From IMG/VR virus record IMGVR_UViG_3300010280_000022: a stretch of 27,380 nt of DNA; one strand, 5' to 3'. Of the stretch, positions 2,920-23,127 are shown piece by piece. The stretch is from a virus. Taxonomy: Duplodnaviria; Heunggongvirae; Uroviricota; Caudoviricetes. A program made the translations under genes and the position numbers. Under the pieces are notes generated by a model. That model saw nothing but the letters and a program-made list of their open reading frames with translations. It was not told where the DNA came from and searched no databases. The stretch's first letter is position 1, and each line of letters starts with the position of its first letter.

Positions 2920-3010
2920 ATTTACATAGCACTCCTCTTGTGCCATAGTAATCGGGCACTGGCAAAATCCAGTGCCGGGATTGGCGTCCCGGATTACTAA
3001 AAGGCGCATT

Positions 3011-3031
3011 CACCGCGCAAGCGGTTTTTTT
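3011..3031 (+). terminator. Rho-independent terminator between the small LexA-controlled gene and the antirepressor gene
   Basis: Stem ACCGC/GCGGT with GCAA loop followed by six T. Confidence 0.6.
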
Positions 3032-3188
3032 ATGCGTATAGCACGGCCACATTCGTATTATGGTGGGCTGTGTGGGGGCACCGAAAGGTGCGCCGGGTCC
3101 TTTTAGCCGGTTACGCCAACCCTGCACAGTTCACCACCAACCGATTGGCGTCGGTAGTGGTGATTAACCAGACTAAAAGGTAACCACT

Positions 3189-3884
3189 ATGACAGCTACA
3201 AAAAGCACGTCCATTTTTTCTTTCGAATCCCAAGCCGATATACGGGTAATCGTCATTAATGGTGAGCCATGGTTTATCGCTTCAGATGTTTGTCGGGCTA
3301 TAGGCATAGCAAACCATCGAGATGCTGTTCGAAAACTTGATGATGATGAGAAGGGCGTCGCTTCAACCGACACCCCTGGCGGTGAGCAAGAATCGATCAT
3401 CATCTCCGAGTCAGGCCTCTACACACTGATCCTCCGCTGCCGCGATGCGGTGACACCAGGCACTATCCCATACCGCTTTCGTAAATGGGTTACAGGTGAG
3501 GTTCTTCCTCAGATCCGCCGCACCGGAAGTTACATTAAAAACTCGCTCACGCAGGAAGAACGCATAAAGATGGTTGCCGACCAGGTAGCCAACGCCACGG
3601 CGTCAGCAGTGATGCAGGCGATGAAGATAGAGAACAAAACCTACAGTGCCCCACTGAAGCCCGGCTACCGCAGCCTGATTCATTCGCCGTCTGGTGTTCT
3701 CGGCCTGACGGAGAACTCACTGCTGATGAATTTGCTGAACCAGTTACAGGAAGACGGGCACGATGTATCGGGCGCGGCGGCGGAACTGACCACCATGTTC
3801 TGCTACATCGTCGGTGTGAGCAAATGCCTGCGTGATATCCAGACTCACGCGGAGTACATCAACGACAAAGCAGGATTCTTCTGA
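3189..3884 (+). CDS. Bro-N family phage antirepressor (231 aa)
   Basis: N-terminal IRVIVINGEPWFIASDVCRAIGI...LDDDEKGV is the Bro-N/antirepressor signature; AAAAGG upstream of ATG; long structured leader. Confidence 0.8.
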   Translation: MTATKSTSIFSFESQADIRVIVINGEPWFIASDVCRAIGIANHRDAVRKLDDDEKGVASTDTPGGEQESIIISESGLYTLILRCRDAVTPGTIPYRFRKWVTGEVLPQIRRTGSYIKNSLTQEERIKMVADQVANATASAVMQAMKIENKTYSAPLKPGYRSLIHSPSGVLGLTENSLLMNLLNQLQEDGHDVSGAAAELTTMFCYIVGVSKCLRDIQTHAEYINDKAGFF

Positions 3885-3958
3885 CAGAACGGCGGCACAG
3901 GGATGTGCCTTTAAATAATTCTGTACAGATTGCAGACTGGGGGGTGAATAGAGTACTA

Positions 3959-3973
3959 TTACCTTACGGGTGA
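3959..3973 (+). promoter_or_regulatory. Dyad motif site C: TTACC-TTACG-GGTGA
   Basis: Same ATTACCTT left arm as other sites; sits ~40 nt upstream of the mini-ORF and terminator that precede the membrane-protein gene. Confidence 0.4.
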
Positions 3974-4063
3974 TCCATAGCGATTAGGCACCGATACAGG
4001 AGGAGCCCACATGAGAAAATTTGACGAGTACGAAGGCGTTTAACATTCGGATAGTTTAATGAC

Positions 4064-4084
4064 GGGGCCATTAGGCCCCGTTTT
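4064..4084 (+). terminator. Terminator/attenuator hairpin directly upstream of the membrane-protein gene
   Basis: GGGGCC-ATTA-GGCCCC then GTTTT; ends 18 nt before GTG at 4103. Confidence 0.5.
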
Positions 4085-4102
4085 CATGTCTGGAGACAGT
4101 TT

Positions 4103-4642
4103 GTGTTAAGTGAAGAAATGCAATTTGCCATGGCTGTGGCTCAAATCGTAAGTGCAGTCGCGGTTTCGCTTGGCTTGTTCATAGCTATCGCTACTATTAT
4201 TTATAATGTAAATACAGCGAGAAAAGTACACACTTCAGTATTCCTTGGTGAAAGCAGGTTTGATGTAGATTATAAGAAAGGCCTATCTACTATGCGCCGC
4301 ATTCACGAATCGAACAAATCATTCCGCTCTTATATGTATCCAAGCAATGGGCAGGCTGATCTTACGGATGAAGAAAAGATAGAGAAGAGAGAAATAATTT
4401 ACTGTCTAGGTTTCTACGAACGCATGGCTGTGAGCGTGAAGCGGAAAACTTATGATGAGACCATGATTAAGGAAGTATTTTACAGCTCCGTTGTAAATAA
4501 CTATCAGATTGCGCTACCTCTTATACAAGCTATTAGAGAAAAAGAAAACATAAACACATATTTTAAAGAATATGAATGGTTGGCCACACGATGGAAGGAT
4601 TGTCCATTGAAAGATAAATCCCCGTGGTACAAGTTTTGGTAA
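4103..4642 (+). CDS. AT-rich inner-membrane protein (179 aa; one N-terminal TM helix); candidate superinfection-exclusion/defence moron
   Basis: GTG start with GGAG 6 nt upstream (alternative ATG at 4118); hydrophobic segment FAMAVAQIVSAVAVSLGLFIAIATIIY; AT-rich codon usage unlike the flanking structural genes; strong terminator follows. Confidence 0.7.
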   Translation: MLSEEMQFAMAVAQIVSAVAVSLGLFIAIATIIYNVNTARKVHTSVFLGESRFDVDYKKGLSTMRRIHESNKSFRSYMYPSNGQADLTDEEKIEKREIIYCLGFYERMAVSVKRKTYDETMIKEVFYSSVVNNYQIALPLIQAIREKENINTYFKEYEWLATRWKDCPLKDKSPWYKFW

Positions 4643-4663
4643 GCCCGCGACGCGGGCTTTTTT
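4643..4663 (+). terminator. Rho-independent terminator after the membrane-protein gene
   Basis: GCCCGCG..CGCGGGC hairpin immediately after TAA, followed by six T. Confidence 0.7.
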
Positions 4664-4735
4664 GTGGACGAAACAAAAGTCAGTGCTACACTCATTGACG
4701 CCACATTGAGGTGGCTTATAGATGGAAATTTCACA

Positions 4736-4897
4736 ATGAAAAAAGCATTTGCTGCACTGTTCGTTTTGTTGTCTCTGGTAGCTTCAACTCAGGCCTTTGC
4801 CGGTCGTTGTCAGCACGACAGCGATACTGCCGCTGACGGCTCCCGCTGCGGTGGGCGTTCTGCGGATTCCCGCCCGGGCGGCGGTGGCATTCGTTAA
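4736..4897 (+). CDS. Small secreted peptide (53 aa; signal peptide plus ~31-aa Gly/Arg/Asp-rich mature part with 2 Cys)
   Basis: MKKAFAALFVLLSLVASTQAFA is a typical Sec signal with AXA site; upstream TTGACG (4695-4700), 16-bp spacer, TATAGA. ORF-track N-terminal extension from 4664 rejected. Confidence 0.5.
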   Translation: MKKAFAALFVLLSLVASTQAFAGRCQHDSDTAADGSRCGGRSADSRPGGGGIR

Positions 4898-4919
4898 AAA
4901 CAAGGCCGCGAAAGCGGCC
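4891..4919 (-). terminator. Terminator at the end of the minus-strand late operon
   Basis: Hairpin GGCCGC-GAAA-GCGGCC (4904-4919); on the minus strand it is followed by TTGTTTTTAACGA. Confidence 0.6.
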
Positions 4920-4933
4920 TGTGACATGTCACA

Positions 4934-5494
4934 CTACATTGATATATGATTCATAAAGTAGCTTAAAGATTTACTTCCCAGAAAAGAAATTTCTTTTCCT
5001 GGATATGTCGCAATAATTGAGCATGACTTATCCCCGTTAGAGGTAACAAATCCTGAATAACCTACTTGTTCTTTACCATTTTGTTGCTTGGCTAAAAAGT
5101 AGAGGTAGCTTATCTTTTTGCCCTCTGGGTAAAACTCTGCCAAACCAGTATCGGTGATTGAATATTTTATTCTCCCGCCTTGAGTAACGTTTTCCATCTC
5201 AAGTTTAGCTATGTCTTTTCTGTTGTATTCAGCATTGATTTTCCTTTCGAAATCAATGTTGTTTTCAAATGAGTAGGAAGCAACAGTCTGAATAGATGGG
5301 AACACGTTTATCTGGATGCCTCCACAGTCGGCACAGGTATAAAGGTATGAATCAGATGGAATCCCCATAAAAGAAAACTGAGTTACCTTAAATTTATCGC
5401 TATCTCCAAAGTATTGAAGTTCGCATTTAACATTTTGCCCTGCAAAAGAAAATGCAGACATCAATATTGAAACAAAAAATATAATTGCCTTCAT
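4934..5494 (-). CDS. AT-rich secreted/periplasmic protein (186 aa), last gene of the late operon; function unknown
   Basis: Signal peptide MKAIIFFVSILMSAFSFA; four Cys; ATG 3 nt after the stop of the upstream 850-aa gene; composition much more AT-rich than the core genes. Confidence 0.7.
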   Translation of the reverse strand: MKAIIFFVSILMSAFSFAGQNVKCELQYFGDSDKFKVTQFSFMGIPSDSYLYTCADCGGIQINVFPSIQTVASYSFENNIDFERKINAEYNRKDIAKLEMENVTQGGRIKYSITDTGLAEFYPEGKKISYLYFLAKQQNGKEQVGYSGFVTSNGDKSCSIIATYPGKEISFLGSKSLSYFMNHISM

Positions 5495-5496
5495 TA

Positions 5497-8049
5497 TTAT
5501 TTACCTAGCATGAACTGCGATGGTGGGATCAGAAAGCCGTTACCCTGCTCACGCTCAACACGGCGCTGATAACGCTCAAGAGAGCCTGGGTCAAGGGCAT
5601 CTTGTATCCGGTTCAATATTAAACCATTCATCGCCGTACGAAGCCAGAACACGTTGAGGAATGGCGTATTGTCAAGTGCCGTGCGATACCAGTCACCCAA
5701 ATCTGCATCCCCTCTCGTGGTCTGCTGGAGCAGCGTGATAATGCTGTCAGCGTTCGATGCTGCTGGCCCCATTAGCGACGTAACCGGCCCGGCCCCCATG
5801 CGGTTGACCTCGCCAAACATGAAGTCACCCAAGATGCCAAGACCGCCCCCCTGAGATGCGGCTGCGAGAAACGTCTTGGCATCTGCCGGGCGTGGTGTTT
5901 GCCCTTTCAGCATGAGTTTTGACTGCATGGAGATATAACCAAACATAGTCGCCCAGACAAAGAGGTTTGCAGCACCAAGGAAAGCCCCCTTCCCGTTACG
6001 TAGCAGCGCATTCGTCAGCGATCCGGTTTTCGACTCACCAAGCCCAGCAGGAATATAACCACGCCCGAATACTTCGCGTCCTAGTACGTTCTGCATGAAG
6101 CTTGCAGTGAACGATTTGTACTGACCAGCGAATCGTATTGCTTCCCCAGCCACCGTTCCTGGCACCGTGCCCATCTTCATAAACGCCTGCGTGCGATCGC
6201 CAGGCTCTGACATGGCGATATTCAGGCGGTCAAGGATGTAGCCGCGCAACTGCCCTTCCAATTGATCGCGTGCGTCAGCGATAGCGCGCTGCGTTGGTTT
6301 GATCCCCTTACTCTCTACATAACCGGCAATCACTTCGTCAGGCACGCCGCGGATGCCGCTGGTCGTCATGAACTTACGACCTTCGCTATCGGCCATGTCC
6401 ATGTTGCGAAAAATTTCCCACTCACGTTCGCCAATACCGTGCAGATCCAGCACGCGTCGCAGGTCTTCCGGTAGCCGCGCATGAGACTGGTCAGCATTCT
6501 TTGCAAGCCAGTTGGTTATCATCATGGCGTTGCTGTTGCGACCGCTCTCGGTCCAGAAGTTCATGAGGTTGTACTTAAAGAAAAGCTGCTGCGCGCGACC
6601 AAGCTTTCCATTCAGCGTGTCATCACCAGATATGCGCCGGATGATTTCCTGCGTCATGGAGTCGGAATAAACTCCGATAGAGGAAAGGATCTCTTTCTGC
6701 TCCGCGCTGTTGTAACGCGTGAAGCGGCCTCTCATAGCACCAAGCAACGCCTGCATAAAATTCTGCCCTTGGTAGCGCATCTCGGTAGCGGCGATAGGCA
6801 CGTCGTTAAACGATGAGATTACCGCGCCACCAAGTTGGCTCATACGCAACCAGCCGCGTACAGCCGCCGACGCATTGGCCCAGCCTACGCTGCCAGGAAT
6901 ATTTAGCGAGCCGTCAACCTGCGGCATTACGGTACGGTTAATGCGACGCACCTTCGTCATGTAGTCAGCCAACGCTGCCGGTCTTCCGGATTTGCTGATA
7001 TCTTCAGCAATGGCGTCCGTCAGGTACTTAAACATGTTCTGTGGGTTAGTGCCCAGTACGCGCATCATGCCCGTTGTGCGGGCAGCGCTGTTTAAGCCAC
7101 CAAACAGCGCTTCTCGCAGGCTGCCGGTGCCGAATTGCTGGTTGTACTCGTGCCAAGAGATACCATCTTTGAAGTGCAAAATTCGCTCTTGGCTGGCGCG
7201 TTTAGCTGCGTTCGCCGATCCCTTAAAGCCATTCATCCAATCGGGCTTTTCAGATGTAAGATGCACGCCGGAAGCCAGCCCGTTATAAATGTTACGCATG
7301 AACTGCTCGCGGTCAGCCACGCCGTCAAAAGTGCGCTCATCAAGGCGCGGGAGAATAGCATTTCGCCATGCATCATAACCTGCGGCGCGGATCTTCATGA
7401 TGTCGTGTGACTGGCGCACTATATAGCCCGGCTCTTTGCGTATCCATGCCCCGGCGCGGTTCTCATCAATGCGCGCAGTTTCCTGCCATTTCATGATGAT
7501 TTGTGCAGCGCTTACGGATTGCTTTGTCATACCGTCAGTTGACTGCCCGCGCCCTATGCGCCACATTGCATCGGCAATTTCCCGGTCATTGCTGCCGCTG
7601 GCGATGAATTGCACCAGCCCGGCACGGTCAAAATCGTAGTTGATACCGGAATGATACTTGCCGCGCAGTTGCGCCACCTCCGAAGATACCGACCGGCGGG
7701 CGCCGGTACGCGCATCGTTGCGGCCAACCAGCATTGCTTCAAGCCCGATATCCGGGCGGTCTTTCCAGATAGTACGAAGCTCTCTAAGTCGTTGTGCGGC
7801 AATACGGGCGTTGATTGCCTTATTGCGAGCCTCAATCTGTTTTGCCAGCATATCGGCATTGCTCAGTTCTTCCGCTGCGCGCATCGCGGCCTCTTCCAGA
7901 GACAGCGCCTCATTGGTCGCCAGAATTCGCCTAGTGGTGTCGTTCATGTCACGCACCAGCGACTCCATCTCATCGGAAGAAAGCTCGCGACCAGCGGCAG
8001 CATTTACACTGCGCTCGCACTGCGTCAAAAATTCGTTTGCTGCCATCAC
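5497..8049 (-). CDS. Internal virion/ejection protein (850 aa; T7 gp16-like position)
   Basis: Long ORF overlapping start/stop with neighbours, in the block between tail-tube genes and tailspike. Confidence 0.7.
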   Translation of the reverse strand: MMAANEFLTQCERSVNAAAGRELSSDEMESLVRDMNDTTRRILATNEALSLEEAAMRAAEELSNADMLAKQIEARNKAINARIAAQRLRELRTIWKDRPDIGLEAMLVGRNDARTGARRSVSSEVAQLRGKYHSGINYDFDRAGLVQFIASGSNDREIADAMWRIGRGQSTDGMTKQSVSAAQIIMKWQETARIDENRAGAWIRKEPGYIVRQSHDIMKIRAAGYDAWRNAILPRLDERTFDGVADREQFMRNIYNGLASGVHLTSEKPDWMNGFKGSANAAKRASQERILHFKDGISWHEYNQQFGTGSLREALFGGLNSAARTTGMMRVLGTNPQNMFKYLTDAIAEDISKSGRPAALADYMTKVRRINRTVMPQVDGSLNIPGSVGWANASAAVRGWLRMSQLGGAVISSFNDVPIAATEMRYQGQNFMQALLGAMRGRFTRYNSAEQKEILSSIGVYSDSMTQEIIRRISGDDTLNGKLGRAQQLFFKYNLMNFWTESGRNSNAMMITNWLAKNADQSHARLPEDLRRVLDLHGIGEREWEIFRNMDMADSEGRKFMTTSGIRGVPDEVIAGYVESKGIKPTQRAIADARDQLEGQLRGYILDRLNIAMSEPGDRTQAFMKMGTVPGTVAGEAIRFAGQYKSFTASFMQNVLGREVFGRGYIPAGLGESKTGSLTNALLRNGKGAFLGAANLFVWATMFGYISMQSKLMLKGQTPRPADAKTFLAAASQGGGLGILGDFMFGEVNRMGAGPVTSLMGPAASNADSIITLLQQTTRGDADLGDWYRTALDNTPFLNVFWLRTAMNGLILNRIQDALDPGSLERYQRRVEREQGNGFLIPPSQFMLGK

Positions 8050-9743
8050 ATCCCCCGGTTAATCATACAGGCGGCAAATGCCCGGAAAGCGTTGCTCATG
8101 CTATTGTCGCTGGCGTCGGTACGAATATCATTGAGTTTCTGGCGCAACGTGGTCGCAAGATCAGGGTTATCGACAGCGATATCGTCAAGCAGGGCGTTAC
8201 TCAGGTTGAGCTCGTTATCAAGGTCTGCAGCGGCAGCGGTAATTTCATGATCTGCCTTTTGCGTTTCTTGATAAACCCGATCGGCTGTTTCGCTTGCTGG
8301 GCGAGCCGTTTCATCAACCTGCCGTGCCGGGTTCTGTATGCGATGGATGGCGCGTTCACGCAGTGCCGGTTTGTGCAGTTCATAGAAGGGCTCAACATCT
8401 GGGCTACGTCCTTCCATCATGTGTGCCAGCGCAGCGCGATACGCCTGCTGGTTCACGTTCCAGTCAGCATCCCTGATGGCGCTTGCGGCAGTGCGAACTG
8501 CGCCAGCGACCGGCGACATCTGCATGCCGTCCAGGATCTGCTGCGCACGCTCGGAAATGGTGACTTTCAGGTCGTCGGGGATCTCGCCGCGGGAAATCTG
8601 AGACTGGCGCCAGCGCGCCTGCTCTGCTGTCGCGTGCTGCTCCAGCGATGTGTTGATCTCCTGATTGCGTGCAGCGATGGCGTCTTTCTCGGCCTGAATC
8701 TCTTTCAGTGCCCTAGAGCGCGCATCCTTAAACTTCATCCGCTGCCCCTGATACTTTTTGGTGCGCTGCTGCAGCGTCGCATCAAGCGAGTCAGCATGAC
8801 GTTGATTAGCCGCAAGCTCGGCACGCAGGTCGGCAACGTTACCGATCTGCCCGCTCTGTAACTCCTGCTGGCGCGCCATATAGTCAGGAACCACGTCGTC
8901 ATAAGCCCGGCTGTATGCGTAGCTCTCCGCTTCACTGGAAATGGCCGCCGCCAGATCTGCATTAGCGCCAACCTCAGGGATATTCACGCCCGCCGGAATG
9001 TTGTCAGGCGTTATCACCGGGGTTGGCTGCGCATCGCCAGAAAACGCCGGGGACTCTCCCGTTGCAGCATCGGGAACGCGACGCGGTCGCACGATATCGG
9101 CGATAAGGCCGCCGCCGGCATGCATTAGACCGCCAGCCATCGTGTTAAAGAAAGTACTTTCCAACGCGTTGCTATAGGTGAAGTCGTCACCTTCCGCCGC
9201 CGCTGCCAGCCCGGTAAGCGGCACGGTCACCACAGCCTGCGCTGCCCCCATGCGTGCACCAGCAACAAATCGCTCGCCAAATCGGCCAAGCACAGAAGCT
9301 GCCTTTGCTTCTCCAGCGAACGGAACCAGCGCCAGCGCCACGTTACCAGGATCTGCCATTGAACCAGCTAGGCTGGCTGCGAAATTAAGCGGCGTGGCTA
9401 CCCATCCGCTCGGTGCCGACATCGCGATCTGCTGGCGTGCCAGAGAATCTTTGCGTTCGGCAATAACATGATCGAGAAAAGCCTGCGTAACGCCAGAATC
9501 TGGCACGTTTATGCTCTTTACGCCGTACTGCTTCAGGAGCTCATCCGCTTCCTGCTTACTGATAACTGTAGAGTTTGGGTCATTCGCCAGCGAGTCGGCC
9601 TGCGCAAAGCGGTAGCCGGACATGACCGGCCCCTCTTCAAATCCCTGCTTAAGGGAAGAAAGCAGCGATTCGCCAAGCCCTGCTGGCGCGTTGCCAATTG
9701 GCTGGTTAATGCCCTGTCCCGGATCATCTGTGTAAATTGGCAT
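8046..9743 (-). CDS. Internal virion/ejection protein (565 aa)
   Basis: Long Ala-rich ORF, ATGA overlap with downstream gene, in the internal-core block. Confidence 0.65.
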   Translation of the reverse strand: MPIYTDDPGQGINQPIGNAPAGLGESLLSSLKQGFEEGPVMSGYRFAQADSLANDPNSTVISKQEADELLKQYGVKSINVPDSGVTQAFLDHVIAERKDSLARQQIAMSAPSGWVATPLNFAASLAGSMADPGNVALALVPFAGEAKAASVLGRFGERFVAGARMGAAQAVVTVPLTGLAAAAEGDDFTYSNALESTFFNTMAGGLMHAGGGLIADIVRPRRVPDAATGESPAFSGDAQPTPVITPDNIPAGVNIPEVGANADLAAAISSEAESYAYSRAYDDVVPDYMARQQELQSGQIGNVADLRAELAANQRHADSLDATLQQRTKKYQGQRMKFKDARSRALKEIQAEKDAIAARNQEINTSLEQHATAEQARWRQSQISRGEIPDDLKVTISERAQQILDGMQMSPVAGAVRTAASAIRDADWNVNQQAYRAALAHMMEGRSPDVEPFYELHKPALRERAIHRIQNPARQVDETARPASETADRVYQETQKADHEITAAAADLDNELNLSNALLDDIAVDNPDLATTLRQKLNDIRTDASDNSMSNAFRAFAACMINRGM

Positions 9744-9744
9744 G

Positions 9745-12366
9745 TTATCGTCCTGATTGCTGGCCGTTCTGGAAAATGTTAATCAGGTTGTCGCGCTGAC
9801 TTTCTGCGCTGTATTCCTTAGACTGTCCGGGAGTATATTTCACCGGCGTATCAATGAACTTGGTAATGCTGTTCCATACTGATCGGTTGGTTGCTCCCAG
9901 TTTCGCCAGATCGTTGAACGGCACCGTAATCGGGTTGCCGTCGGCACCGTTGACGATCAGCCCGTTGAGCATCAGGGTAAGTCCTGTTTCGTCGCTGTTG
10001 GTCACCCACTGCGCATTATCACGAATGCGGGAGATACTCTGCTCACGGTTGACCTCATCAGGTAGCCTTGGGTCACCAATAAGCGGCATAATCTGATCTG
10101 CTGACAGGTTTTTCAGATACGCATTGGCACCATCGTTAACGTCACGAATATCTATCCCTGCACGATTAGGTAGCCGCCAAGTGCCATTGGTCTGGTACTG
10201 CTCGCCGAGGATGTCCTGATACGCCTGTTTTGCTGCATCAGACGCCGACATTCCGCGCTGCATGTTGATGTAAGTAAGTCGTTTTCCCTGCTCGTTGAAG
10301 TTATTCCACACGGCAGTGCCACCAGGCTGAACAACCATCGTGCCAGCAAAATCTTTCGATTGGTCATTCCATGACGAGTCGGCGCTATCCGCGTCGGTTT
10401 TCTCAAGACTGCCGCGTAAGTCAGCAGTTTTAACGCTACGGTTTTGCCAGAGCGCATTTGCCGCGCGCGGGTTCTCGGTAGCCATGACAACCTGCAACGC
10501 AGGATAAGCGCTCTTCTGAACCTGCTGCATCACCTGATCCGAGTATTTGCCGAACGACTGCGCCACCGACTGAATGGCCTTAACGCTAGATTCCTGCGTG
10601 TTGTCAATACGCTGCAGTACATCATTGACCATGGACTCCGGTAAAACTTTTTTGCTCATTATCCCCAGGCGGTCTTTTTCAGACTGTATGCGGGAAACTA
10701 GGTATTCACCAGATGAAGGGTCATTCAGGTACTGCTGGAATGCAGCCTGCACAACCGGAGAGTTTTGTTGCAGCCATGCCCCCGGATCCGCTTCCCGCGC
10801 CTTCAGTACCTGCCCAAGCTTGACCTTTGCCGATGCATAAAGCTCTGCTTTGTATTTAAAGTCAGGGTCGTTTTCCTGCGGTGCCATTGCCTGCACGGCG
10901 GCGGTACCCTGCTGGACGTTGCCCTGCATAATGGTCTGATAAACAGGTTGTAGCGTCATTGCCTGCTGGTATTGCTGGAAGGTTTTTTCCATCTGCAGGC
11001 GCTCGGCAGGCGCTGCCTGAAGCGGCATAACGGCGGCCCATTCGTGCGCTGAAATAGGCGTCACCTGCTTACCGGCCTCAATTTTGGATAGGTCGTCCTG
11101 CATTCGACTCTGTAGCGCAACGCGACCGGCTGAAGCCTGCATGTCGTACATGCCAGCAACCTTGCTCATCATCTGCGACTTTTTGTCCGGACTCATGGCG
11201 TTCCAGAATGGCTGTGCGATGAGGTTTTCCATCGTCGCAGATCCAGGAATAGCTCCAGCACTGCCAGTTACTTTTGCCACATAATTGCGCGTCTCGTCGT
11301 ATGGGATAGCTGCGGCAAACTGGGCGTTACTGACTTCGCCTGTGCGCGGATCGCCAATCTGTTTAATCCAGCCGTCAACCTTTCCTGGGCCAGCGTTATA
11401 GGCAGCTACTGCCAGAACCGGGTTATTGTCGTATTTCTTCATCTGCGCGCCGAAATAAGCTTGCCCCAAGCGGGCATTATAGCGCGGGTCATTCAACCAT
11501 TTATCGCGGTCCCACGGCACGCCAGCAAGGCGGGCAGCTTCGGGGCCAGTATCTTCCGTCACCTGCGCTACGCCAACAGCGCCTTTTGGCGACACCAAAG
11601 GTGTTCCGTCCTTTCCGTACTGATTTCCGCCACTCTCCTGCCAGATTATTGCAGAGAATAACTGCGCCTCACTCGGTGTATCGGTTACCTCAATCTTGCC
11701 GTTCGGACCCATGATCTGTTGATACATCGGCACATACCACGCCTCCGCCGCACCGTTCGCGGCATTCTCGCGCCACGAAACCCAGTTCTGTTCTATCTCT
11801 TCCTGACTCTGGCCGTGGGCTTCGCCGTAAGCGATGATGCTATGATATGCCTTCAATCCTGCCTGGTTTGCCATTGTCGGGTTACGGAACTGCATCGATA
11901 GGTTTTTTAGTGTCGCATCCTGCATATCCGCCTCATACTGGCGAACCTGTCCTATTTCGTACCTCCCGGCCTGCGTAGTGAACTGAATGCGCTGCTGCTG
12001 CGCCTGCTGCATGAAAGCATTACGAGCCTGTTCATCCGGCAGCGACATAGCCAGTTGTTCGACCTGAGCATCAAACTGCTGCGTATACTCCTGACCTTTT
12101 CCAATAGCATTTTTCCCTTTCAGGTTAAGCAAACCTGTTTCAGGGTTATTCAGCAGATCGCTGCCTGTCTGACTGAGTTTAAGGGATGCCTCCTGAACCA
12201 AGGCAATATTGGTACGCTGTTTTGCCTGACCCAGAACATCAATTGCCTCTGTCCCTGCCCGAACAAAAGCATCACTAATACCTGGCTGAGAAAACGTCTG
12301 CAAGCCTGCTGACTGAACTCCACGACTCTCAACCTGACGTCCCGATGTTGTTGGTACAACTGGCAT
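9745..12366 (-). CDS. Internal virion protein with lytic transglycosylase (SLT) domain (873 aa)
   Basis: IIWQESGGNQYG..GAVGVAQV...AYNAGPG at residues ~235-335 is the SLT catalytic signature (nt ~11362-11664). Confidence 0.8.
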   Translation of the reverse strand: MPVVPTTSGRQVESRGVQSAGLQTFSQPGISDAFVRAGTEAIDVLGQAKQRTNIALVQEASLKLSQTGSDLLNNPETGLLNLKGKNAIGKGQEYTQQFDAQVEQLAMSLPDEQARNAFMQQAQQQRIQFTTQAGRYEIGQVRQYEADMQDATLKNLSMQFRNPTMANQAGLKAYHSIIAYGEAHGQSQEEIEQNWVSWRENAANGAAEAWYVPMYQQIMGPNGKIEVTDTPSEAQLFSAIIWQESGGNQYGKDGTPLVSPKGAVGVAQVTEDTGPEAARLAGVPWDRDKWLNDPRYNARLGQAYFGAQMKKYDNNPVLAVAAYNAGPGKVDGWIKQIGDPRTGEVSNAQFAAAIPYDETRNYVAKVTGSAGAIPGSATMENLIAQPFWNAMSPDKKSQMMSKVAGMYDMQASAGRVALQSRMQDDLSKIEAGKQVTPISAHEWAAVMPLQAAPAERLQMEKTFQQYQQAMTLQPVYQTIMQGNVQQGTAAVQAMAPQENDPDFKYKAELYASAKVKLGQVLKAREADPGAWLQQNSPVVQAAFQQYLNDPSSGEYLVSRIQSEKDRLGIMSKKVLPESMVNDVLQRIDNTQESSVKAIQSVAQSFGKYSDQVMQQVQKSAYPALQVVMATENPRAANALWQNRSVKTADLRGSLEKTDADSADSSWNDQSKDFAGTMVVQPGGTAVWNNFNEQGKRLTYINMQRGMSASDAAKQAYQDILGEQYQTNGTWRLPNRAGIDIRDVNDGANAYLKNLSADQIMPLIGDPRLPDEVNREQSISRIRDNAQWVTNSDETGLTLMLNGLIVNGADGNPITVPFNDLAKLGATNRSVWNSITKFIDTPVKYTPGQSKEYSAESQRDNLINIFQNGQQSGR

Positions 12367-22009: not shown

Positions 22010-22086
22010 GTGGCATTAGCTCAGTCGGACAGAGCAACCGCCTTCTAAGCGGTTGGTCGCAGGTTCGAATCCTGCATGCCACGCCA
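22010..22086 (+). tRNA. tRNA-Arg (anticodon UCU, reads AGA), phage-type
   Basis: Acceptor stem GTGGCAT/ATGCCAC, D-arm AGCTCAGTCGGACAGAGC, anticodon loop CTTCTAA, T-arm GCAGGTTCGAATCCTGC, discriminator G plus CCA. Confidence 0.85.
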
Positions 22087-22249
22087 GAATCACGCCTAAG
22101 GACCGTGATGCCAGAAGTTCCAGGTGCTTGGCGGTGATGGTTTCCCTTGAAGAACTATCACCGCCCTTTTTACAGCAGGACGCCATTGCGATGACTTCAT
22201 GCTGTAAACCAGTACAGCCACGGAAGGCATAACTCATTGCTTCCAGTTC

Positions 22250-22273
22250 GCCCGGTTCGCCGGGCATTTTTTT
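22250..22273 (+). terminator. Rho-independent terminator downstream of the tRNA
   Basis: GCCCGG-TTCG-CCGGGC followed by ATTTTTTTG. Confidence 0.7.
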
Positions 22274-22289
22274 GCTTGATGACCGCAAA

Positions 22290-22304
22290 TTACCTTAAAG
22301 GTAT
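22290..22304 (+). promoter_or_regulatory. Dyad motif site D: TTACC-TTAAA-GGTAT, abutting TATAAT and the moron ATG
   Basis: ATTACCTTAAAGGTATAATcATG; right arm overlaps an AAGG Shine-Dalgarno-like element 7 nt from ATG at 22309. Confidence 0.45.
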
Positions 22305-22308
22305 AATC

Positions 22309-23127
22309 ATGAAAAACTTCAAGGTAATTAGCATGTTTGAATCGTTTAAAGAGCTGTTTTTATCTACTGCCAATACTGCCGTGAATAGAGCCAAAAACCC
22401 TGTGCTTGGTGCTTTTGTTATGTCCTGGTGCGCCTTCAACTGGAAATCAATTCTTTATCTATTTTTTAGCAAATCAAACATAATAGATAAAATTTCATAT
22501 ATCTCAGATAACAGCACATGGAAAACTGTTATGTTTTATCCATGCTTATCTGTAATTGCTATCTGCTGCCTATTACCATGGGTAAACAATATCATTAACG
22601 TATGGCAAGCAAAGCCTCTTGATAATAATGACTCAATCGAAAATCACCTGAAGGCAAGAAAAATCCAGCGTGAAACAAGACTGCAGAGGTTATTGGCTAA
22701 AAAAGATGTTACATACGACAAAGTTAAGACTGGCGCGGAAAAAGACATCCAAGAGATGAAAGAAGAGATTATTCGATCAAAGAATAGTATGGGGGAATTG
22801 ACTGCCGAGTTGAAAGCTAAAGATGACGAATTGAGATCCGCCAGTGCTCAGTTAGCAGCTCTAAATCATTCATTAAAAGAGATATCGGAAACTCTTGGAA
22901 GAATGAATGAGGCATATAAGACCCTCCAAAATGATTTCGACGAATACAAACTCAAATACCCTGAAAAATCTCAAATAAAAAGCCTTGCACTTGGCAACGG
23001 CCAAACAATTAGCAACTTTTTGGAGCAACACAACTTATCCGGATTAAAATCTGGTAAGCCAAACGTTTTTAATAACTTTGGTGTTCTATCTGGATTATCA
23101 GGTTTCGAGGATAAAAATAAAGACTAA
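22309..23127 (+). CDS. AT-rich moron: membrane-anchored protein with C-terminal coiled coil (272 aa); candidate abortive-infection/superinfection-exclusion factor
   Basis: Two hydrophobic segments (PVLGAFVMSWCAFNW..., VMFYPCLSVIAICCLLPWV) then a long charged heptad-like region; opposite strand and markedly more AT-rich than the flanking terL and portal genes. Confidence 0.7.
   Translation: MKNFKVISMFESFKELFLSTANTAVNRAKNPVLGAFVMSWCAFNWKSILYLFFSKSNIIDKISYISDNSTWKTVMFYPCLSVIAICCLLPWVNNIINVWQAKPLDNNDSIENHLKARKIQRETRLQRLLAKKDVTYDKVKTGAEKDIQEMKEEIIRSKNSMGELTAELKAKDDELRSASAQLAALNHSLKEISETLGRMNEAYKTLQNDFDEYKLKYPEKSQIKSLALGNGQTISNFLEQHNLSGLKSGKPNVFNNFGVLSGLSGFEDKNKD

Follow-up and report, generated by a model that had tools for sequence, protein, structure and literature searches.

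Do the three small genes between the ejection-protein genes and the tailspike gene of an Escherichia coli prophage act together as one anti-phage module, or are they separate units? We addressed this question for a stretch of 27,380 nucleotides (nt) (IMG/VR record IMGVR_UViG_3300010280_000022), which as a whole will be referred to as the window. DNA matches, including those to TL-2011b, phiv142-3 and phiV10, identify it as an epsilon15/phiV10-like (Uetakevirus) E. coli prophage. The genes in question, g1 (4103-4642, plus strand), g2 (4736-4897, plus strand) and g3 (4934-5494, minus strand), were confirmed as open reading frames (ORFs), and a RefSeq E. coli prophage that is 99.4% identical to the window annotates all three identically. 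An earlier note on this DNA had described them as one cluster of AT-rich, envelope-targeted genes at the place where phage P22 carries sieA, and had proposed an exclusion or defence module acting on DNA entry, or a lysogenic-conversion cassette.

Two exchanging slots around a conserved micro-gene

Comparison by blastn with TL-2011b, L004, L005, phiv142-3 and phiV10 placed breakpoints at 3971/3972, 4641/4642, 4932/4933 and 5477/5478. In TL-2011b and L004, homology to the window ends at 3971 and restarts at 4641/4642; in L005 it ends at 4932 and restarts at 5478, and phiV10 is devoid of the whole of 3886-4874. The interval is thus the junction of two independently exchanging accessory slots, designated A and B, around the conserved micro-gene g2. 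It is composed as follows (aa, amino acids):

3972-4641, plus strand: slot-A cargo cassette (leader and g1), delimited by blastn breakpoints
4103-4642, plus strand: g1, DUF4760 protein of 179 aa with a predicted N-terminal membrane anchor and an all-helical domain (Pfam PF15956; phrog_2284)
4641-4665, plus strand: terminator after g1, part of the conserved backbone block and not of the cassette (8-bp stem with six GC pairs and a T-run; RNAfold -13.4 kcal/mol)
4642-4932, g2 on the plus strand: conserved g2 block, kept in E. coli relatives
4665-4692, plus strand: promoter-like site for g2, possibly its promoter (TGGACG, 16-nt spacer, extended -10 TGcTACACT; 8/12 matches plus the TG extension in a lax consensus scan)
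4736-4897, plus strand: g2, conserved micro-gene for the 53-aa precursor of a predicted secreted 31-aa peptide with two Cys (phrog_14503, E 2.3e-40)
4903-4920, both strands: bidirectional terminator hairpin common to g2 (plus) and to the late operon with g3 (minus) (RNAfold z -4.8 on plus, -4.0 on minus)
4933-5477, minus strand: slot-B cargo cassette (g3), delimited by blastn breakpoints
4934-5494, minus strand: g3, predicted periplasmic protein of 186 aa with four Cys, last gene of the ejection-protein operon and slot-B cargo (phrog_11983)

Both slots are filled differently in related phages. Slot A may hold a YafO-like toxin gene preceded by a small ORF, a DUF2335 membrane protein together with a 110-aa ORF, or a 210-aa protein; elsewhere it contains small ORFs or is empty. 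Slot B elsewhere contains a 123-aa signal-peptide protein plus a 98-aa protein with multiple transmembrane segments, proteins of 149 and 146 aa, a Klebsiella lipoprotein (lipobox LSGC), the 46-aa peptide of phiV10 with two transmembrane segments, or Arc-Ant and two further ORFs in TL-2011b. A count across 5,426 complete E. coli genomes gave 422-499 with the g2 block, 41-81 with g1 and 56 with g3; g1 and g3 occurred together in only four of the approximately 93 genomes having either one. Klebsiella epsilon15-like prophages carry g1 in the same slot as the window without g2 or g3, and in Salmonella and Hafnia prophages g3 is paired with other slot-A cargo.

Base composition separates the three genes as well. 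The structural region has a GC content of 51.6 ± 4.0% (540-nt segments), from which g1 (38.7%) deviates by about -3.2 and g3 (35.5%) by about -4.0 standard deviations. The markedly AT-rich, foreign composition that had been ascribed to all three genes therefore applies to g1 and g3 and not to g2, which at 58.0% is GC-rich and, in the E. coli relatives, part of the conserved backbone. With their sharp breakpoints, their presence or absence among near-identical phages and a GC content deviating from the surroundings, the g1 and g3 cassettes resemble morons. As regards transcription signals of their own, terminators are present, g2 being flanked by one on either side, and the phiV10 annotation shows a terminator at the site equivalent to 4903-4920. 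Promoters are less uniform: no strong sigma-70 match was found for g1, g2 has the promoter-like site listed above, and g3 lacks upstream intergenic space.

One part of the earlier proposal that holds is the destination of the products. Envelope targeting holds for all three, as g1 has a hydrophobic anchor and both g2 and g3 have Sec-type signal peptides. This common feature and the adjacency of the genes at the sieA-equivalent position are what speaks for g1, g2 and g3 being one coordinated envelope module, for exclusion, defence or conversion, acting on DNA entry. The two cargo genes assort independently, each gene has its own breakpoints, and the genes lie on different strands in transcription units separated by terminators. 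The distribution of the genes already contradicts a single module, which we consider highly improbable, and the notion of a cluster was given up in favour of separate units. g3 had also been called a convergent periplasmic protein, which is correct for its signal peptide and its orientation towards g1 and g2; it does not form a separate unit, however, since it shares the strand of the ejection genes. The left edge of the cluster had been set at 4103, which omits 130 nt of the g1 cassette, including an upstream ORF (uORF, 4011-4043) and a hairpin (4061-4082).

The gene between the slots, g2, encodes the secreted Cys-containing peptide that had been predicted. Its Sec-type signal peptide would be cleaved between MKKAFAALFVLLSLVASTQAFA and G, leaving a mature part of 31 aa with two invariant Cys. 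The mature sequence C-x-H-D-x-D-T-A-A-D-G-S-R-C-G-G-R-S-A-D-S-R-P-G-G is nearly invariant across the Enterobacterales, and the signal peptide varies. No Pfam or NCBIfam family was found for g2; it may resemble a DxDxDG/Excalibur calcium loop, for which there was no Pfam match. The gene also occurs alone in unrelated prophages, directly after a RelB/YafQ pair in E. coli and between large virion genes in Pectobacterium (solo copies: L038 4346-5162; L037 5001-5168). g2 would be an autonomous secreted disulfide peptide.

The two Uetakevirus slots were not described in the literature searched. Both are present in about 9% of complete E. coli genomes and offer a source of uncharacterised envelope proteins for superinfection-exclusion screens.

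The leader of the DUF4760 gene

The uORF came to light when the 130 nt accompanying g1 were aligned to the Klebsiella copies; it is followed by a terminator-like hairpin directly ahead of g1:

3998-4043, plus strand: Shine-Dalgarno (SD) sequence AGGAGGAG (3998-4005) and 10-codon uORF 4011-4043, MRKFDEYEGV (sequence and conservation)
4061-4084, plus strand: intrinsic-terminator-like hairpin, stem 4062-4069/4074-4081, loop ATTA, followed by TTTT (RNAfold -20.8 kcal/mol, z -4.2)

The SD sequence lies 5 nt ahead of the ATG of the uORF. The hairpin begins 18 nt past the uORF stop codon and ends 18 nt short of the g1 start. Between the window and the Klebsiella copy the uORF differs by four synonymous changes and one R to K exchange.

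The arrangement was followed through 13 genome loci and 80 viral contigs, which yielded 121 DUF4760 places with 89 distinct upstream regions. A uORF ending in [DE][DE][FYW][DE]G-x(1-5)-stop is present in 79 of these 89 leaders, and 70 of the 89 also have a perfect GC hairpin with a T-run, which in most cases starts 17-19 nt past the uORF stop and ends approximately 5-25 nt before the DUF4760 start. The association is specific: of 127 motif uORFs in the 2.1 Mb scanned, 125 are followed on the same strand by a DUF4760 gene at a distance of no more than 330 nt, and shuffled sequence contained none. In the core codons D-E-[F/Y]-[D/E]-G, the first and second positions are invariant save for F/Y, and the third positions take two to four bases (24 distinct codon strings). 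Such variation at third positions only shows that selection acts on the peptide and not on the RNA alone. The stem of the hairpin core is conserved too, with double-sided changes in three of six pairs. Even the DUF4760 gene of a Pseudomonas phage, whose product is 31% identical, is preceded by a uORF ending in ...EEYEGI-stop, a distance of 19 nt and a GGAGGCC/GGCCTCC hairpin with five T. The unit of a 10-11-codon uORF, a terminator and the DUF4760 gene is passed on as a whole between mobile elements that are unrelated to each other.

One motif uORF, MKKMHDEFDGF in L086 (at about 1536), does not adjoin a DUF4760 gene; it is located 1.4 kb upstream of one (3001-3468) on the same contig. This arrangement suggests an insertion between leader and DUF4760 gene.

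Two elements expected of an attenuator, an SD-bearing uORF under selection and an intrinsic terminator before the gene, are recognisable in the sequence, and together they probably constitute a leader-peptide attenuator controlling DUF4760. Such an attenuator would keep DUF4760 expression low, and disturbed translation of the leader would lead to transcriptional read-through. Since conservation lies beside the stop codon and the spacing is fixed, the relevant event may take place at translation termination; most likely, the conserved C-terminus of the leader peptide would act on the ribosome at this step. In P2-type leaders the SD sequence of the uORF pairs with an anti-SD directly 5' of the terminator, but this pairing does not preclude the terminator.

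The same leader may be read differently. The 10-aa peptide could itself be the functional partner of DUF4760, for example an abundant and labile acidic inhibitor, or micro-antitoxin, of a toxic membrane protein, with the terminator merely setting the ratio of peptide to protein. Selection falls on the peptide sequence itself, its uORF has a strong SD, and a more highly expressed upstream gene is the usual toxin-antitoxin layout. Furthermore, the peptide is acidic and aromatic and would face (near-)invariant basic residues of DUF4760 (R52, R75, R107, R145, K123), and a YafO toxin cassette alternates in slot A. However, it is more typically leader peptides coupled to termination that show such a near-fixed spacing (17-19 nt between stop and hairpin) and a conservation limited to the last six residues ahead of the stop, and we know of no antitoxin as short as 10 aa. 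We therefore regard an antitoxin role of the peptide as rather unlikely and prefer attenuation.

To our knowledge, D-E-[F/Y]-[D/E]-G-x-stop matches no known leader peptide. The motifs were not found in the literature searched either, and Rfam contained no family matching the leader region. The uORF-terminator leader is a new observation and the most valuable result of this analysis, as it defines the DUF4760 cassette. The leader may act as a trigger that senses the state of translation, which, if true, would be a new way of arming a defence or toxic membrane protein.

DUF4760 and g3 as candidate exclusion proteins

Profile and structure-based searches, one way in which the proposed exclusion role could be checked, assigned g1 to DUF4760, found no Pfam family for g2 or g3, and matched none of the three to SieA or PADLOC models. 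The assignment of g1 is firm: it scores 106.6 bits against PF15956 (cut-off 25) over profile positions 2-141 of 141, and all 17 aligned homologues match the same family. The gene starts with GTG behind a ribosome-binding site GGAG (4092-4095). As had been claimed, g1 looks like an inner-membrane protein, with a single hydrophobic segment at approximately residues 6-39. This segment has an acidic N-terminal and a basic C-terminal flank, which suggests an N-out/C-in topology, and by the positive-inside rule the helical domain would face the cytoplasm. The AlphaFold2 model of g1 (predicted local distance difference test (pLDDT) 86; predicted template-modelling (TM) score 0.74) consists of a long N-terminal helix with the transmembrane segment, followed by a helical bundle. 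In an alignment of 22 sequences, R52, D54, E106, R145 and E156 are among the invariant residues, which are located in the motifs ESRxD, NFYERxAVS, PxIxAxRE and YQEFEWL. HEPN, which appeared low in the Foldseek list (TM score approximately 0.22), was rejected, and an Rx4-6H motif was not seen in g1.

At each of the 13 genome loci examined, DUF4760 stands alone. Besides the slot shared by the window and the Klebsiella prophages, it was detected as a moron between the tail genes K and I of a Yersinia lambdoid prophage, directly after cI in Pseudomonas phage D14E, abutting the integrase in Alteromonas phage P24, and between the portal gene Q and the replication gene A of P2-like phages and prophages. 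The Q-A interval is the old/tin defence hotspot of P2-like phages; DUF4760 is listed 197 times in the table of its contents (Table S5), usually adjoining StbA/ParM genes, and is absent from the table of evaluated systems (PMC9122126). In the literature searched, only one paper, unrelated to this question, used the term DUF4760 in its main text. DUF4760 is thus a widespread, unstudied passenger of sites where temperate phages keep anti-phage genes, including the P2 old/tin hotspot.

On account of this location, that is, of guilt by location and not of proof, a prophage exclusion or defence role is favoured, especially for g1. DUF4760 would be a single-gene anti-phage protein expressed from the prophage; it would work at the inner face of the inner membrane, by superinfection exclusion or by abortive infection. 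The positions of DUF4760 can also be read as those of factors for host fitness, lysogenic conversion or element maintenance (tolerance of envelope stress, colonisation, plasmid-like maintenance of the prophage), so that the genes studied here would not be anti-phage at all. In P2-like phages DUF4760 is very often found next to ParM/StbA partition genes, accompanied by a partition/stability gene, in the Q-A hotspot (L041, L045 and Table S5 of PMC9122126), which could mean maintenance. In several Enterobacterales chromosomes it forms a single-gene islet amid housekeeping genes, and phiV10-type phages are known serotype converters (oac annotation). Nevertheless, the old/tin hotspot, the position after cI and the sites adjacent to Bro-N/ant genes are typical of genes for exclusion and abortive infection (PMC9122126, PMC10883804), and a YafO-like toxin alternates in slot A. 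A fitness or maintenance role accordingly appears doubtful to us.

The slot-B gene g3 is organised differently. Its product has a signal peptide (..SAFSFA, followed by GQ) and four invariant Cys. The gene starts 2 nt past the stop codon of the 850-aa ejection gene on the same strand and lies ahead of the terminator at 4903-4920, which makes it the last cistron of the ejection operon. In Hafnia, Klebsiella and Salmonella prophages g3 likewise follows an ejection gene of 848-850 aa at a distance of 2 nt, down to 66% identity. The g3 family comprises 17 clusters at 90% identity and, among 1.84 billion proteins, eight at 50%, and it is confined to the Enterobacterales.

Slot-B products are nearly always envelope proteins (lipoproteins, signal-peptide proteins or proteins with multiple transmembrane segments), and nearly all of their genes abut the ejection gene. 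This lack of an upstream region, together with the envelope destination, points to late co-expression and an envelope-modifying role similar to that of T5 Llp. g3 would be made late, with the virion proteins, and modify the envelope of the infected cell like other slot-B cargo. Such a lytic conversion of the T5 Llp kind could protect the cell or the progeny from further injections.

Envelope proteins in slot B of relatives are encoded at L007 6581-6961, L005 4028-4704, L006 4033-4935, L001 10558-11553 and L036 3846-3986; they belong to PHROG families of unknown function or have no PHROG match. The 187-aa slot-B protein of TL-2011b, which has a transmembrane anchor (L001 10990-11553), gave a weak PADLOC match to the TIR-like ThsB (E 0.005, 15 bits) that is probably noise. 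A match of g3 to NlpE in NCBIfam (E 0.033; 13.6 bits against a cut-off of 243 bits) was judged to be driven by the signal peptide and was dismissed.

The late position of g3 would equally suit a function in the lytic cycle of the phage itself, such as lysis timing, passage of the envelope or virion release, for g3 and the other slot-B products. g3 abuts the late operon and has long resided beside the 848-850-aa ejection gene across genera, and in K. michiganensis the tailspike gene directly follows g3. Yet otherwise near-identical phages have unrelated proteins in this slot, or no more than the 46-aa membrane peptide in phiV10, and no single function encoded there can be essential; moreover, g3 had no match in 50,697 deposited phage genomes. 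We consider a part in the lytic cycle improbable and retain protection from further injections as the proposed role of g3.

Several observations weigh against the picture developed here, that is, two exchanging slots around g2, a leader attenuator, an anti-phage g1 and a late, envelope-modifying g3. Besides the partition genes next to DUF4760 in P2-like phages, PADLOC-DB v2.0.0 contained no match at E ≤ 1 for g1, g2, g3 or the neighbouring Bro-N protein, and ten alternative slot proteins gave nothing convincing against PADLOC beyond coiled-coil noise and the weak TIR-like match. No site 5' of the g1 leader passed the scans for the sigma-70 consensus. TTGCAG-18-TACTAT (3929-3958) comes closest, with 7/12 matches, and falls below the scan thresholds; as no convincing sigma-70 promoter was found there, expression of g1 in the lysogen is uncertain. 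In the window-type leader no clear alternative fold that could act as an antiterminator was found, and the SD/anti-SD pairing of the P2-type leaders is missing. For g3, the AlphaFold2 model was unusable (pLDDT 44). Its top PDB profile match was indeed T5 Llp (PDB 8a60; E 0.28 including signal peptides, in a KCE..Y..D..K.K...F stretch), but homology was rejected, as the hhalign probability was 8.8% and one of 324 unrelated ORFs scored as high. Taking all this together, we still give the picture as a whole a cautious preference. Candidate exclusion or defence cargo at the sieA-equivalent position is a plausible description of g1 and of g3, each taken separately.

The immI-type neighbourhood and known systems

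The surroundings of the two slots correspond in position to those of sieA in P22. The structural genes lie on the minus strand from approximately 27000 down to 5497, with terminase-, portal- and capsid-sized ORFs among them, and the tailspike gene is located left of approximately 2330 on the minus strand and continues past the window start. The neighbouring features are:

5497-12366, minus strand: ejection-type genes of 873 aa (SLT domain), 565 aa and 850 aa (profile searches)
5497-8049, minus strand: last ejection or internal virion protein gene, 850 aa (phrog_684 'virion structural protein', E 2.3e-271); its phiV10 equivalent is phiV10p20, annotated as a virion structural protein
3189-3884, plus strand: Bro-N domain antirepressor-like gene of the backbone (Pfam Bro-N, E 2.2e-21; PHROG anti-repressor Ant families)
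2943-3141, plus strand: predicted P1-type immI regulatory RNAs (a1b1 targets, isrK-like RNA and C4 antisense RNA; Rfam), 5' of the Bro-N gene

With ejection genes on one side and the tailspike gene on the other, the interval is the positional equivalent of P22 gene16-sieA-immI-gene9, as the earlier note had it, and the C4/Bro-N unit lies where P22 has sieA-mnt-arc-ant. The parallel to P22 immI is borne out as well, since an antirepressor unit with C4 RNA and isrK is present. In Rfam searches isrK (2956-3031) scored 77.9 bits (gathering threshold 50) and C4 antisense RNA (3056-3141) 77.7 bits (gathering 45); c4-a1b1 (2943-2995) stayed slightly below its gathering threshold with 45.1 against 46.7 bits. 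The Bro-N gene is kept in phiV10, TL-2011b and other relatives. C4 and isrK above gathering directly 5' of the Bro-N gene mark the region as a P1-type immI unit, and, judged by these matches, the Uetakevirus prophage in the window uses a P1/P7-type immI (c4-ant) control unit.

Two further parts of the window are GC-poor. The tailspike-coding region (1-2300) has 39% GC, as expected for a horizontally exchanged receptor-binding module; the tailspikes differ among the relatives and include endosialidase and GH28-like types. A second AT-rich island (22010-23127, plus strand, 33-39% GC) lies within the packaging/head module, on the opposite strand, in the terminase-portal interval. It carries tRNA-Arg(tct) at 22010-22086 and an ORF of 272-296 aa with hydrophobic segments and a long coiled coil, which gave only weak coiled-coil matches to SMC-like defence proteins. 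The island is probably another moron.

The most distant likeness concerns the plant EDS1 family. The EP domain of EDS1, PAD4 and SAG101 (PF18117) is the receptor for nucleotide signals made by TIR proteins. It has been described as having no structural relatives outside its own family (PMC6377607). The literature searched contained no paper that connects EP domains with bacterial proteins. In the Foldseek ranking of the g1 model, EDS1 chains came out on top, as the closest of the solved folds, with TM scores of 0.46-0.51 and E values of 0.6-3, which is borderline and a match at the level of the fold only. As g1 is all-helical, the match would fall on the helical EP domain and not on the lipase-like domain. 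At the sequence level, homology between DUF4760 and the EDS1 EP domain was not supported: none of 17 DUF4760 members had a Pfam match to PF18117 at E ≤ 10, the hhalign probability of the g1 family against the Arabidopsis thaliana EDS1 EP domain was 0.5%, and the result stayed negative even with the broader alignment of 22 sequences (the EDS1 sequence had been checked for agreement with PDB 7xdd_B). In EDS1, PAD4 and SAG101 the EP domain is fused to a lipase-like domain, and the proteins are heterodimeric and bind ADP-ribose-derived ligands. g1, in contrast, has just a transmembrane helix ahead of its helical domain, lacks the lipase-like domain, and is solitary, without a heterodimer partner, and membrane-anchored. 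The modelled fold match may serve as a lead only. There is a very small chance that the EP domain has, in DUF4760, a relative in bacteria and phages. DUF4760 would then be a membrane-anchored sensor-effector with a basic pocket for a nucleotide-derived immune signal or for its own acidic leader peptide, and it would be switched on by its ribosome-sensing leader when infection disturbs translation. If true, the orphan plant EP domain would gain a prokaryotic counterpart, and DUF4760 would define a new type of defence that consists of one gene and carries its own translational trigger. The link to the EP domain is weak; if real, it would bear on the origin of a central node of plant immunity.

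Compared with T5 Llp, a small phage envelope protein of lytic growth, g3 and the other slot-B products would share the role. Llp has a lipobox, whereas g3 has none (no Cys at the cleavage site) and has three times the length of Llp.

Leader-peptide attenuators and arrest peptides are known from trp/pyrBI-type attenuation, TnaC and ToiL. The DUF4760 leader resembles them in the short uORF, the fixed distance and the intrinsic terminator directly before the putatively regulated gene, and likewise in the concentration of conservation in the residues beside the stop codon.

P22 SieA is close to g1 in position, between the last ejection gene and the tailspike gene and beside an immI antirepressor unit (PMC10883804). 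Both products are small inner-membrane proteins, g1 by prediction (SieA 164 aa, g1 179 aa), and both occur in some relatives only. Transmembrane helices are predicted by TMHMM in all SieA types A-C, which have a cytoplasmic FxRYPxEAxxFNK motif (PMC10883804); this motif does not occur in the g1 or g3 sequences. SieA has several long hydrophobic stretches where g1 has a single transmembrane segment, and it belongs to Lederbergvirus and lacks a leader uORF, whereas the window phage is a Uetakevirus. Homology to P22 SieA was rejected, with hhalign probabilities of 1.0% for g1 and 0.3% for g3.

The cassettes of the window are similar to morons and to the cargo of the P2 hotspot, with which they share foreign GC content, sharp breakpoints, terminators and patchy presence in near-identical phages. 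Slot-B cargo differs from these in having no intergenic space of its own and in nearly always encoding an envelope protein. The novelty here lies in a variant within a known kind, the accessory and exclusion cargo of prophages; the chance of something more unusual is small.

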